This document shows positions 53,333 to 62,125 of a stretch of DNA of 64,000 nt, one piece after another. The notes under the pieces are model-generated. The model was not told where the DNA came from. It worked only from the letters and a program-made list of their open reading frames with translations, and did no database searches. This DNA is from an uncultured virus (IMG/VR IMGVR_UViG_3300004151_000009) (Duplodnaviria > Heunggongvirae > Uroviricota > Caudoviricetes): IMG/VR virus record IMGVR_UViG_3300004151_000009. The stretch is one strand, 5' to 3'. Each line of letters opens with the position of its first letter. Positions within the stretch are counted from its first letter, which is position 1. The position numbers and the translations under genes were made by a program.

Positions 53333-53593
53333 TCAATCCACCCGTTTCCGAATCCATCTTAAATCTGTGTTAGCTGGTTTTTGTCGTGAGCGAATCCACA
53401 GCACATCGAAAATGCCAGGACTACCCACTACACAAAAACCAGTGGCTTCTGGATGCGTGTTTGCAGCAACAACTACAGGGCGTCCTAGAAATTTTACCAT
53501 CCCAAGTAGTATCGGGTACAACCCTCTATCTGGGAGGGCATCTAAGCCATCCAAAGACATAAGTGTGACTACATCCCCTTTCCTAAGTCTCAT
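53333..53593 (-). CDS. Small SH3-like protein with C-terminal tag
   Basis: LRKGDVVTL...M.KFLG..V.V...F...WI; ends NTDLRWIRKRVD. Confidence 0.65.
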   Translation of the reverse strand: MRLRKGDVVTLMSLDGLDALPDRGLYPILLGMVKFLGRPVVVAANTHPEATGFCVVGSPGIFDVLWIRSRQKPANTDLRWIRKRVD

Positions 53594-53897
53594 TACAGCC
53601 TCCCACCCGCTTCCGAATCAGTCTTATATCCTTGTGTTCTGCATCCCGCCTTACTATCTCCACACAGTTGGGGGGCAGAATCCTGACATCCCCCGTGTCC
53701 ATCTGTATGATGTAGCCATCTTGGAGTTGGGCCAGCCCAAGAATGTATCCAAACGTAGTCCCCTTCAGAAACGGCTTTATGGGGTCTTCCAGAACGTACT
53801 TCGGAAGGTCTTTTATGCACCTCAGTTCCTTCCGGCTCTTGATGCGGCACCTTCTGTGTACGTTTTTGGTCAGTTCTTCTGTCGAGTATGTAACCAT
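53583..53897 (-). CDS. Hypothetical protein with C-terminal tag
   Basis: Ends HKDIRLIRKRVGGCNET. Confidence 0.6.
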   Translation of the reverse strand: MVTYSTEELTKNVHRRCRIKSRKELRCIKDLPKYVLEDPIKPFLKGTTFGYILGLAQLQDGYIIQMDTGDVRILPPNCVEIVRRDAEHKDIRLIRKRVGGCNET

Positions 53898-53928
53898 GTG
53901 CGTACCCTACACAGTCTTCTCTCTTTTG

Positions 53929-54138
53929 TCAAGAGATATCTCGCATACCTCTCATACAACCGCACGCGATGACCGTCCCGCCCTTCAAGTTGTCCACTCT
54001 GATGGTTTTTAGGTTCCCGCAGTTGAGGCACTTGCATATCCACCAAGTCTTACCGGAGTTATCCTGCGGGGTGGCTCTGGCCTTCACCAACAACTCCCCA
54101 AACTGCTGACCTACGAGGTTTGAAGGTCTTCGTGGCAT
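53929..54138 (-). CDS. Stand-alone N-terminal domain of AP2/HNH-type homing endonucleases (possible remnant)
   Basis: L.GQ.FG.L.V...W.CKC..CGN...L..G...CGC with no nuclease domain. Confidence 0.55.
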   Translation of the reverse strand: MPRRPSNLVGQQFGELLVKARATPQDNSGKTWWICKCLNCGNLKTIRVDNLKGGTVIACGCMRGMRDIS

Positions 54139-54347
54139 GTAACTTCCTCCTGCTTCACGAACTTGGCACAGCCGTAGTTACCCACGTTATGGAACAGTTC
54201 TGAGATGTAGAGACTTGCACCTTCTGGGTGGTAATACTTCACAAGTGTTCCGTACAGCCCGCACTTCCCGTAGAAGATGCCCTGGACATGGCTCTCTACA
54301 AAAGGCTCCAGCCTGTTCGCACAACTAAAACAATTCTCCTTGTGCAT
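54111..54347 (-). CDS. Small Cys-containing hypothetical protein
   Basis: CFSC...C...GC.KF. Confidence 0.45.
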   Translation of the reverse strand: MHKENCFSCANRLEPFVESHVQGIFYGKCGLYGTLVKYYHPEGASLYISELFHNVGNYGCAKFVKQEEVTCHEDLQTS

Positions 54348-54363
54348 CCTACCCCCACTTTGG

Positions 54364-54909
54364 CTAGTATTTGTGCATGTCAACAACATCAGGCCCCAGG
54401 TAGGGGTCAAGCAGTTTCCGCCACAGTGTATATCCATTCTTGGTGAGATGCACCCCATCAACTGTGAAATTCTGACTCAATCTGTTGCTATTGTCAAGAA
54501 AAAACAGATGAAAATCCAGAAAAAGAACCTTCGGGTCCATCATGTGGTGGCAGAGAAGTCGCAACTCTGTGTTCACCCTATACACATGGGGATTCAATTC
54601 ATCTCGGCGGGTGGGCAGGACAGACTGCACATAAATCTGCGTCTCCGGGGAGCCAGCCCGAATTTTTTCAATCAGGGCTTGGTATTTTGCAGTCAACTTC
54701 AAATCTTGAATCTGATTGATACCCACCATGATGAAGATTTTCTTGGGCTTCTGTGTCAGCACCGTATCTACCATCTTGGACATATCAGCGATTGTGCCAG
54801 ACACCTTCCCGACGATCACGGAACCGTTAGGAAGCAGCGGGGAGGACTCCCACCCCTTGGTGATAGAGTCCCCCAGAAACACCAGCAGAAACAGATAGAC
54901 AGCACTCAT
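54364..54909 (-). CDS. SGNH/GDSL hydrolase
   Basis: FLGDSIT, G.N, QSVLP, DGVHL..GY..W. Confidence 0.88.
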   Translation of the reverse strand: MSAVYLFLLVFLGDSITKGWESSPLLPNGSVIVGKVSGTIADMSKMVDTVLTQKPKKIFIMVGINQIQDLKLTAKYQALIEKIRAGSPETQIYVQSVLPTRRDELNPHVYRVNTELRLLCHHMMDPKVLFLDFHLFFLDNSNRLSQNFTVDGVHLTKNGYTLWRKLLDPYLGPDVVDMHKY

Positions 54910-55166
54910 TAACCCTTCCCCTCGCACGTAAAAGTTATCTGGTCTGGACGCCACAGCCAGTCCGCAGGACGTTTAGACAGGTGGTCCAGCAGTTCCTTGT
55001 GGGAGTTCACCACGATACAGTTATCACAGGAACTCGCCCACGGAGCATTTCCATACCCACACACAGGACACTTCCATCCCACCGGGACGGGCTGCGGAGT
55101 CTCACAGGTGTGTCCAGAACTCTCCACGATCTTGCCACAATACTGACAGTAAGTCTTATGGAACAC
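54909..55166 (-). CDS. Small zinc-binding protein
   Basis: CQYC..H.C; GWKCPVCG..NAP...C..C. Confidence 0.5.
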   Translation of the reverse strand: MFHKTYCQYCGKIVESSGHTCETPQPVPVGWKCPVCGYGNAPWASSCDNCIVVNSHKELLDHLSKRPADWLWRPDQITFTCEGKG

Positions 55167-55169
55167 GGT

Positions 55170-60334: not shown

Positions 60335-60600
60335 TGGAACTGAAAGTCGGGACGGTTGTCAGACTCATGAAGCAGGAGTGTGCCGAAAAGACATGTGGTC
60401 TAACAATATACACACCCATGCACAAGTATTTTGGGACAGACGTAACAATAGCAGACCTGTCGGGGTGCAAAAGCCACTTCAAGATACGCGGAGATGCTTC
60501 AAACCTATGGTATGACGCAAGGTGGATAAAGTCTGTGGGTGCTGCATCTAGGCTGGATTATCATCGGGACATTCGGCTGATTCGATTACGGGTCAGGTAG
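60334..60600 (+). CDS. Small SH3-like protein with C-terminal tag
   Basis: LKVGTVVRL...M.KYFG..VTI...F.I...WY...WI; ends HRDIRLIRLRVR. Confidence 0.7.
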   Translation: MELKVGTVVRLMKQECAEKTCGLTIYTPMHKYFGTDVTIADLSGCKSHFKIRGDASNLWYDARWIKSVGAASRLDYHRDIRLIRLRVR

Positions 60601-60618
60601 CATACCTGGAGGTTTAGT

Positions 60619-60987
60619 ATGGCAAAGACACTGATGTTCAGCGTAACCAAGGATGATGTGGAGTGGGACACGTATCGCGGGACGGGGCCTGGAGGCCAGC
60701 ACAGGAACAAGACGGAATCGGCAGTACGTTTAACGCACAGACCTTCCGGGGTGGTAGTACAGAGTCAGAGTGATAGAAGCCAGCATACGAACAAGCGTGA
60801 GTGTATGAAGCAGTTGGCAGCCCACCCGAAATTCAAGGCATGGTGCTTACGTCGCAGCATTGAAATGCGGGAGGGGGAGACGTTAGAGCAGAAGGTAGAC
60901 AAGATGCTCCATCCCGAGAATCTAAAGATCGAGTTGCTGGACGAAACTACACATAAGTGGGGGGCTGGACATGCAGGTGGGAGATAG
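60619..60987 (+). CDS. Single-domain GGQ peptidyl-tRNA hydrolase (class I release factor-like, ArfB/PrfH type)
   Basis: [26 protein letters not shown]...RSQH.NK. Confidence 0.88.
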
Positions 60988-61303
60988 GATCAAGCTGCGC
61001 TCTTATGGGGAGATCAAAGCCCTTCCTGGTGTGTACGAGGAGGGGTTCTGTGGTGATGCCAGCAGGCCGTGCTTACTCCACCCAGATTGGCATAGGAATG
61101 TTGTGATTAAGGATTCTGCACTCCGATGCGGGTGTGATGGTATAACCTCTCACGAGGTTACTTCTGTGGAAGGCCAGTTTTTCCACATCATGGGGCATTC
61201 CTGGACATTCCATGAGGATTGGGTAGTGGGATTGGTGAGGGGTTCAACTACGAGCCAAGTGAGACACAGCGACCTTCGATTGATTAGAACACGGAGGCCC
61301 TAG
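60971..61303 (+). CDS. SH3-like protein with C-terminal tag (paralog of 61661-62125)
   Basis: [16 protein letters not shown]...W.FH.DWV; ends [12 protein letters not shown]. Confidence 0.7.
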
Positions 61304-61305
61304 AC

Positions 61306-61635
61306 ATGTTAGGGGTGTTCGTTATTTTACGCTCACGCGAGAGCATACAGTCAGACGATGTTCTACTGCATAGTCTGGTTGGGTATGGTTTTCCAGTGGT
61401 ACTACAAGAAATGTCTCATAGGGAGCGTGGTGCTTTCGATGCCGTGTTTGATGGTGTGAGCAAGCATCAGGTGTACGCTATCAAACATGGGTGTGTCTTT
61501 GTAGGTGCCTTCTCCGACATTCCAATACCCGACATCCTGGTGCTTTCTTGGGATATTTTGGGGAAGGAGGCACCCCGAAAAATACGTTCCAATCACCTGG
61601 ATATACGTTTGATACGTTGCAGAAAGACGAACTAA
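61306..61635 (+). CDS. Hypothetical protein with C-terminal tag
   Basis: Ends HLDIRLIRCRKTN. Confidence 0.6.
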   Translation: MLGVFVILRSRESIQSDDVLLHSLVGYGFPVVLQEMSHRERGAFDAVFDGVSKHQVYAIKHGCVFVGAFSDIPIPDILVLSWDILGKEAPRKIRSNHLDIRLIRCRKTN

Positions 61636-61660
61636 GACACACAAGTAAGGAGATACTTCG

Positions 61661-62125
61661 ATGATTCGTTCAAGGATTTCATCCATGTGGGAGGCACTAA
61701 AAAGCCACTTCTATGTGGCACAACGCCCGGTGCCCGAACAGGCCACCACCATTACTAGGAGTAGCCAAATACGGTTGCGGGTTGGGGACAGAGTGAAACT
61801 GCTATCCTATAAAAGCATAGCTAAGTTGCCCGGAGTCTATACAAAGAGGTTCAATGACCACCTCAATGAGTGCTTGGGTCATTACTCTTGGGAGACATAC
61901 AGAGTAATTAAAGGAACGACCCAACTATATGTGTTTGGGGATGGGGGCTTTCATAGGATTGACTCTGTGTCCGAGTCTAGAAACTGCTTCACTATTGAAG
62001 ACCATCCTTGGTGGTTTCATAAGGATTGGGTTGCCGAACATCGCCCACGGCAGCAATCTGGAAGCTGCATGAATACCATGCGGGTGATCCGTCTATCAAA
62101 AAATCGGGAAGGAGAACAGAAGTGA
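61661..62125 (+). CDS. SH3-like protein with degenerate tag
   Basis: VGDRVKLLSY..I..LPGVY...W.FH.DWV; tail NTMRVIRLSK. Confidence 0.65.
   Translation: MIRSRISSMWEALKSHFYVAQRPVPEQATTITRSSQIRLRVGDRVKLLSYKSIAKLPGVYTKRFNDHLNECLGHYSWETYRVIKGTTQLYVFGDGGFHRIDSVSESRNCFTIEDHPWWFHKDWVAEHRPRQQSGSCMNTMRVIRLSKNREGEQK

Follow-up and report, generated by a model that had tools for sequence, protein, structure and literature searches.

The stretch of DNA analysed here (the window, 64,000 nucleotides) is part of the circular tailed-phage record G001 of 105,842 bp, from an uncultured virus catalogued as IMGVR_UViG_3300004151_000009. Nine small proteins encoded in the window end in one shared peptide, [HN]-x-D-[ILV]-R-[LW]-I-R-x-R, hereafter the tag. 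The tag is a real, selected and lineage-specific C-terminal peptide, and it is most likely the docking tail of an AAA+ module that was copied onto an array of SH3-like miniproteins. We put the probability at about 0.55 that it serves as a docking peptide for one site of the module made up of the phage's Ycf46-type AAA+ ATPase and its DUF1257 and DUF2997 proteins. Positions given below are those of the window unless marked G001; a window position equals the G001 position plus 5258.

A scan of all six reading frames of the whole record yielded exactly nine matches to the strict pattern, all of them inside the window and C-terminal, each beginning 12–17 codons ahead of the stop. With a profile built from the tags, the nine carriers scored 29.4–37.2 bits and the next-best site in G001 18.2 bits; leave-one-out scores of the nine tags were 18.8–35.7 bits. 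The chance expectation for the strict pattern is about 1e-4 in six frames, an optimistic figure, as the pattern was derived from its own matches. A preliminary description of the window had quoted these nine tails and two weaker ones. All 11 are present at their open reading frames, and the nine-fold sharing of a C-terminal tag was borne out by the profile and the six-frame scan, as was the single tag of the two-domain protein at 59837–60334. It should be noted that the G001 gene set was called by a script, which missed or shortened ten genes of the tagged cluster; these were entered by hand. The tagged genes and the elements around them are as follows.

53333–53593, minus strand: SH3-family paralog of 86 aa (leave-one-out family E 1e-7), tag NTDLRWIRKR at 53342–53371.
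53583–53897, minus strand: 104-aa protein with a body outside the paralog family by sequence (E 12), tag HKDIRLIRKR at 53607–53636.
54469–54497, minus strand: sigma70-like promoter candidate (10/12), upstream of the leftward tagged genes.
58400–58435, plus strand: hairpin of 16 pairs with a T run, ending the PhoH unit.
58446–58474, plus strand: sigma70-like promoter candidate TTGACA-17-TAGAAT (11/12), directly 5' of the first rightward tagged gene.
58501–58797, plus strand: SH3-family paralog of 98 aa with a 20-residue linker, tag HRDIRLIRLR at 58756–58785.
59192–59221, plus strand: sigma70-like promoter candidate (10/12), 5' of the main run of tagged genes.
59255–59530, plus strand: SH3-family paralog of 91 aa (structure modelled), tag HRDVRLIRMR at 59489–59518.
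59535–59840, plus strand: SH3-family paralog of 101 aa, tag HRDIRLIRMR at 59796–59825.
59837–60334, plus strand: 165-aa protein with two SH3-family domains and a single tag, HTDLRLIRLR, at 60296–60325.
60334–60600, plus strand: SH3-family paralog of 88 aa, tag HRDIRLIRLR at 60562–60591.
60619–60987, plus strand: RF-1 (GGQ) domain protein (PF00472, E 1e-24) without a tag, within the tagged run.
60971–61303, plus strand: SH3-family paralog of 110 aa with inserts, tag at 61265–61294.
61306–61635, plus strand: 109-aa protein, tag HLDIRLIRCR at 61594–61623; its body is unlinked to the family after tag removal (E 2.4).
61661–62125, plus strand: SH3-family paralog (E 1.5e-11) with a degenerate tag, NTMRVIRL, at 62072–62095.

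The tags are far more alike than the proteins that carry them: the mean identity over 36 pairs was 0.72 for the tags and 0.17 for the bodies. Meanwhile, each of the four invariant Arg/Asp columns of the tag is written with two to five different codons. The sequences thus indicate that selection acts on the peptide and not on the DNA, in agreement with the preliminary description on both counts. A DNA-level repeat or recombination site underlying the tag was ruled out by the synonymous codon variation and the differing flanks.

Five related proteins of other assemblies bear the tag (P0002, P0009, P0015, P0016 and P0022). The strict-tag search of a viral collection returned six stretches, three from this phage and three out-of-frame chance matches; that of a metagenome collection also returned six, three from this phage and three by chance. 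An alignment scan gave 29 pattern matches, of which two were confirmed, both from this phage, and a search of cultured phages gave no match. Because the viral, metagenome and cultured-phage collections yielded no further genome with the tag, the strict spelling is, judging from these searches, lineage-restricted. Literature searches, whose coverage excluded subscription journals, found no description of the tail motif.

With the tags removed, seven of the nine strict carriers, the 61661 protein and an untagged protein (G001 72123–72374, minus strand) formed a single family, with leave-one-out E values between 1e-7 and 1e-31 compared with 0.02 for the best decoy. The bodies of 53583 and 61306 gave no family score by sequence, but an Atlas model of 53583 is SH3/YorP-like, with a TM score of 0.58 to a YorP cluster, which lies below the bar for naming a family. 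Thus, the "variable cargo domains" of the preliminary description are mostly one SH3-like family, with seven strict carriers linked by sequence and an eighth, 53583, by predicted structure.

One paralog, 59255, was modelled. The model has a five-stranded SH3-like fold with a helical insert, in which residues 1–71 form the core (pLDDT 80–93) and residues 72–91 form a tail of pLDDT 53–64 with no secondary structure. The core superimposed on the SH3-like barrel of the Mind bomb REP domain (4xi6) with a VIA Z of 8.0, which is near the level that common barrels reach (rmsd 2.2, 66 residues, 27% identity). Foldseek also matched the model to Mind bomb REP (E 0.02, prob 1.0), and similar viral models exist. 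No Pfam MIB/SH3 family matched any of the 11 tagged proteins at E 0.1.

The tag is a flexible add-on outside the SH3-like fold, because members of this family from other sequences carry different tails. The idea that the tag is the last core strand of a fold common to all carriers was ruled out, as the tail lies beyond the last strand, is of low confidence and is unpacked in the 59255 model. The untagged paralog ends with the final strand of the core and has neither linker nor tag, which makes it a natural negative control. The SH3 family is common in other sequences, often as repeats. Tails of the form L-P-x-x-L-F were found in 9 of 66 matches and tails of the form I-P-x-x-x-x-R-M in 4 of 66. 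The former, more fully L-P-x-x-L-F-x-I, belong to P0024, P0026, P0028, P0032, P0044, P0046, P0054, P0056 and P0063, and the latter to P0018, P0035, P0038 and P0043; both appear to be further lineage tags. The proposal of a modular addressing system therefore stands in part: the unpacked tail, its single copy in the two-domain protein, the untagged paralog and the conservation speak for a docking or address peptide, while the cargo is less varied than was supposed.

The same data bear on another explanation, by which the tag is an assembly strand internal to the family, inherited by duplication and bound by the SH3 barrels of other paralogs in a hetero-oligomer or by strand exchange, the likeness to the ATPase tail described below being a coincidence. 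It would suit the seven paralogs among the nine strict carriers, the last core motif H-x-D-W-V, which resembles the H-x-D start of the tag, and the D-V-L-W-I-R that stands just ahead of D-L-R-W-I-R in 53333. SH3 folds are also peptide binders, and Mind bomb REP, the structure nearest to the model, has been determined in complex with a peptide ligand (4xi7). However, the tail is free in the monomer model, an untagged paralog exists, the family has other tails elsewhere, and a partner as variable as these bodies would not keep the tag at 72% identity. We consider this explanation improbable.

The ATPase is encoded outside the window (G001 89030–90613) and ends in ITRLIRSN after a linker. PF00004 was matched only at residues 275–405, and the homologs are named as SpoVK/Ycf46/Vps4 family proteins. 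The protein has a degenerate first and an intact second AAA domain, and its two-domain model matches Cdc48 D1-D2; the top fold matches were N-terminally deleted Rix7, p97 and Cdc48. According to the model, it is a Cdc48/p97-like double-ring ATPase without an N-domain. Its tail is unpacked after the linker, as in 59255. A single-sequence query found no homologs of the ATPase, and an alignment query did. One homolog, 55% identical, lies in a Desulfovibrio assembly, which is a mere hint on the host.

The homologs mostly end in R-x-[LIV] tails, and Arg522 is conserved in at least 90% of 95 aligned ATPases, the rows of which were chosen for having tails (94 of the 120 homologs listed). The exact RLIR tail is rare: it occurs in 1 of the 120 homologs (P0067, a 94% identical twin), in 8 of 173 genes of this phage and in one gene each in 2 of 19 other records. 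When 137 ATPase tails, some of them duplicates, were ordered by their likeness to the nine tags, the phage's own tail ranked first (tied with its twin), third and third at word lengths of 4, 5 and 6, respectively. Within G001, R[LFWM]IR occurs 14 times in genes, 12 of these within the last 18 residues. A scan of the C-termini found R-x-I-R in four more proteins outside the tagged cluster, among them the ATPase and the 19095 protein; in a post hoc comparison, the motif occurred at 4 of 1920 terminal and at 7 of 22,510 internal positions.

The partner genes lie in the window on the minus strand.

19095–19637, minus strand: module gene for a 180-aa protein that belongs to no known family and has the tail AVRFIRMK; it heads the DUF1257/DUF2997 run.
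18558–18911, minus strand: DUF1257 (Ycf35)-like protein, candidate binding site, linked to homologs by iterative profile.
18368–18556, minus strand: DUF2997 protein, candidate binding site (PF11211, E 1e-12; 47.8 bits, cut-off 24.1).
18091–18348, minus strand: conserved fourth small gene of the module, 85 aa, with homologs at the same position in G004, G006, G007 and G014.

The gene order is 19095, a 59-aa gene, DUF1257, DUF2997 and the 85-aa gene. The 18558–18911 protein had no direct Pfam match; 19 of the 28 aligned members of its iterative profile match PF06868. DUF1257 and DUF2997 are not detectably related to each other, and no solved structure for either was found by sequence. The 19095 protein, one of the two weaker carriers noted in the preliminary description, is unrelated to the SH3 paralogs (the other, 61661, is a paralog with a degenerate tag). 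Its five homologs occupy the same place, and all 6 of 6 members of the family keep the tail motif, so its tag is genuine and conserved in its own family. The motif is also present in 3 of 3 DUF3150-like proteins, against a background of 263 of 2165 genes (12%) overall and 10 of 102 in eight other families. A small heat-shock protein identity for 19095 was ruled out: neither it nor the carriers matched HSP20, and its Atlas model was unusable (pLDDT 0.34).

For comparison with other phages, 17 ATPase-bearing records (G001, 11 of 14 viral loci and 5 cultured phages) and 3 ATPase-free controls were used; G004 was covered to 96% and G015 to 95%, and most viral records are incomplete. The DUF1257 profile matched 13 and the DUF2997 profile 14 of the 17 ATPase-bearing records, from which the profiles were partly built, and neither matched any of the three controls. 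In the cultured phages SM1, HJ05, L338C and RcDurkin, the ATPase, a 200-aa gene, DUF1257 and DUF2997 form one operon, in that order. Tails of the form R-K/R-x-x-hydrophobic are present on three of the four 200-aa proteins, for which no homology to 19095 was detected. Clostridia loci have DUF1257 fused to DUF2997, and neighbouring proteins there bear the ATPase motif at their N-terminus. In Corndog (W01, 56866–60055), the ATPase has the tail KVRVLDL, and its gene is flanked by two genes that, on inspection by eye, are DUF3150-like and DUF1257-like; no DUF2997 match and no clear tail cluster were found in that record.

The tails of several phages resemble those of their own ATPases. In G013, the ATPase ends in GEIKRLIKV and five other proteins in GEIKRRLIL, GEIKRKIII or GETKRKINI; EIKR is present in 4 of 329 of its own tails and in none elsewhere. 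Likewise, RRID is found in 2 of 162 tails of G015 and in none elsewhere, and G015, G003, G004 and G014 have tail clusters resembling their own ATPase tails. A test of own against foreign tails over 16 records gave P = 0.02, driven by G013, G015, G005 and G006. A test of the ATPase tails against those of the 19095-family and DUF3150-like proteins over nine pairs gave P = 0.009. With a profile of 92 foreign ATPase tails, eight of the nine strict tags fell in the top 10 of 164 in G001.

A number of results weigh against a docking tail of the ATPase module. The tag and the ATPase tail share a four-residue core only, and the ATPase tail lacks H-x-D, which hardly varies among the tags. The foreign-tail profile was not enriched at C-termini: it matched 69 of 1972, when shuffled sequences gave 60.8, with 5 of 176 against 5.1 in the controls and 5 against 5.0 in G001 itself. 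G001 came only fifth of 20 in the own-against-foreign test (z 0.4), the six 19095-family pairs alone gave P = 0.13, and 11 of 16 records lack an own gene with the exact four-residue core of their ATPase. The tail regex fits 11 of 17 ATPases within the last 14 residues, although it was written after the tails had been seen, and the compared records are related and thus not independent. Moreover, the tagged SH3 proteins are, by sequence, not a conserved part of the ATPase module, because the SH3 family was found in 0 of 18 other ATPase-bearing records; the tail would be general and the SH3 cargo local. A prediction of the complex of ATPase residues 1–505, DUF1257, DUF2997 and the tag peptide, run with no controls, gave scores of 0.23 and 0.00 against a mark of 0.32 and weighs on neither side of the binding question.

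Some of these results would suit a host protein as the reader of the tag, which might be a degradation machine or the groove of a protease or chaperone (small heat-shock proteins, for example, have IXI-type sites). The tag would then set the lifetime or location of early proteins, and the ATPase tail would bind the same host site or match by chance. Host-type sigma70 promoter candidates precede the tagged genes, the ATPase tail leaves the H-x-D half unexplained, no enrichment was seen with the general tail profile, and basic-hydrophobic C-termini are typical of protease and chaperone signals. Nevertheless, we regard a host reader as unlikely: the rare RLIR is common to the tags and the phage's own ATPase, the tail variants of G013 and G015 go with the lineage of the phage, and 19095 matched no small heat-shock protein family. 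Of the partners named in the preliminary description, capsid, ribosome and protease gained no support, and the evidence points to the phage's own Ycf46-type AAA+/DUF1257/DUF2997 module.

If the tag is indeed a docking tail of this module, it would be this phage's version of a basic-hydrophobic module tail, R-x-[ILV]-R/x-hydrophobic. The tags, the ATPase tail and the 19095 tail would all bind one site, on the DUF1257-DUF2997 complex or on the ATPase ring, probably as an added beta-strand, and the tagged proteins would thereby be brought to the motor. In general, p97 uses its N-domain for cofactors. The best candidate for the binding site here is DUF1257-DUF2997, because the pair occurs along with the ATPase and forms a fusion in some lineages, and because the motor has no N-domain. 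The H-x-D part may be a lineage-specific extension that raises the affinity above that of the ATPase's own tail. A further step, which holds about half of the probability of the docking reading, is that the SH3 proteins act as early adaptors that diversify rapidly. Different host or phage proteins would be gripped by the barrels, and the tails would deliver these for remodelling or unfolding, the tag being an exchangeable plug that retargets a single phage chaperone.

Ycf46/Ycf35/DUF2997 genes are found in cyanobacteria, plastids, Clostridia and many phages. A tail common to the motor and to lineage-specific accessory proteins would offer a ten-residue handle for the binding site and a sequence rule for clients. 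This phage has the longest and cleanest version of the tail among the 20 compared records, in nine copies and tied to an SH3 miniprotein array. Were the SH3 proteins adaptors, they would make up a programmable phage protein-remodelling system. It is a doubtful extension that many unrelated phages carry a Cdc48-like unfoldase with a DUF1257-DUF2997 hub, retargeted by a ten-residue plug on hypervariable SH3 barrels, for the ubiquitin-free dismantling of host proteins such as defence complexes, and that the same socket explains Ycf46/Ycf35 function in plastids and cyanobacteria.

AAA+ adaptors such as SspB of ClpX, and p97/Cdc48 cofactors with their binding motifs, combine a binding domain, a flexible linker and a short terminal peptide. 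The tagged proteins likewise consist of a folded domain, a linker and a terminal peptide outside the fold, and the motor has the Cdc48/p97 D1-D2 fold. In contrast to these systems, the phage motor lacks the p97 N-domain and the ClpX zinc domain and itself bears the peptide, the motif is unrelated in sequence, and binding is inferred. Most likely, the tag belongs with the short docking motifs of AAA+ machines. The tagged bodies share their predicted fold with the Mind bomb REP/MIB-SH3 repeat, but they are single domains with an appended tag, have no Pfam match and do not belong to a ubiquitin ligase. The gene set closest to that of the phage is Ycf46/Ycf35 (DUF1257, PF06868)/DUF2997 (PF11211), the same three families being present here. 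In the accessible parts of the reports, ycf46 of Synechococcus belongs to a three-gene, ppGpp-dependent stress operon and encodes a KaiC-interacting ATPase (bioRxiv 10.1101/2025.07.21.665879), and Synechocystis has a DUF2997-DUF1257-fed7 cluster (PMC4284462); those parts describe no tail motif, binding site or substrate of the set. Unlike in this gene set, the gene of the phage ATPase is 75 kb away from the DUF1257/DUF2997 genes, or about 30 kb when the circle is closed, and about a dozen accessory proteins bear copies of the ATPase tail.

Other proteins of G001 have weak tails: YRMIRVNN (G001 65992–66456), ELIRLIEI (G001 66805–67746) and EVRRIRTG (G001 83679–87029, minus strand). The protein with the last of these tails is probably the large terminase; at 1116 aa it exceeds its 700-aa homologs and perhaps contains an intein. 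The terminase as a conserved tagged client was unsupported, the tail regex fitting 2 of 10 terminase homologs. Its ending and that of the G013 terminase (NGEIKRKIII) would nonetheless agree with a capsid-loading signal, by which the carriers are packaged in the head and injected. The internal proteins of T4 share a targeting peptide, likewise one short peptide on several small, variable phage proteins. The T4 signal, however, is N-terminal and cleaved by the prohead protease, whereas all nine tags are C-terminal, basic and common to the ATPase. The tagged genes are also separate from the head operon and follow host-type promoter candidates, and with so few terminase homologs fitting the regex we hold capsid loading to be very improbable.

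At the N-terminus, RLIR is present at position 6 of the protein encoded at G001 71611–72096 and RFIR at position 2 of a Cas4-like nuclease (2366–3259, minus strand). These may be tags too, because N-terminal copies of the tail occur in Clostridia loci. A different, acidic ending of the D-I-D-x-L-L type is found in most relatives of two proteins, that encoded by the gene after the ATPase (G001 88025–88951) and a probable single-stranded DNA-binding protein (12021–12839), and makes up a second tail class.

Several tagged genes overlap stop to start. Together with the promoter candidates preceding them, this suggests early, coupled expression, although the total number of sigma70-like sites in the region is at the chance level. 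The codon use of the cluster is atypical, with AGA/AGG making up 49% of Arg codons versus 27% and ATA 38% of Ile codons versus 13%. A PhoH query matched this phage alone.

The RF-1 protein within the tagged run, the RlaP nucleotidyltransferase (55170–56186), an RNA ligase (1063–1968) and RtcB (G001 90985–92091) probably form an RNA and ribosome repair kit. Along with the ribosomal KOW/SH3 proteins among the weak fold matches, these genes would be in keeping with an Arg-rich tag that binds RNA or the ribosome, its SH3/KOW-like carriers acting on translation beside the RF-1 protein. This is the least probable of the explanations weighed here. The RF-1 protein itself is untagged, the ribosomal fold matches are at the background level (Z 5–6), and the conserved Asp and His with alternating hydrophobic residues would fit a protein groove better than RNA.

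The phage is probably temperate, because a tyrosine integrase is encoded in G001. An intergenic element, TTTTGAAGT(C/T)AA, is repeated with 19 loose-pattern matches in G001, including 2297, 19718, 45001, 47465, 51759, 53314, 57063 and 59184 in the window and further sites in the rest of G001. At four sites it lies about 20–40 bases ahead of a TTGACA promoter-like hexamer, and it is possibly an operator or a promoter-upstream element. The major capsid gene is followed by a neighbouring pair of small paralogs (47075–47428 and 47471–47713), both of which match one gene in relatives. Two GDSL/SGNH hydrolase genes are present (54364–54909 and G001 92633–93301), and an ArdA antirestriction protein and an SPFH/Band 7 protein are encoded at G001 68853–69464 and 73408–74280, respectively.

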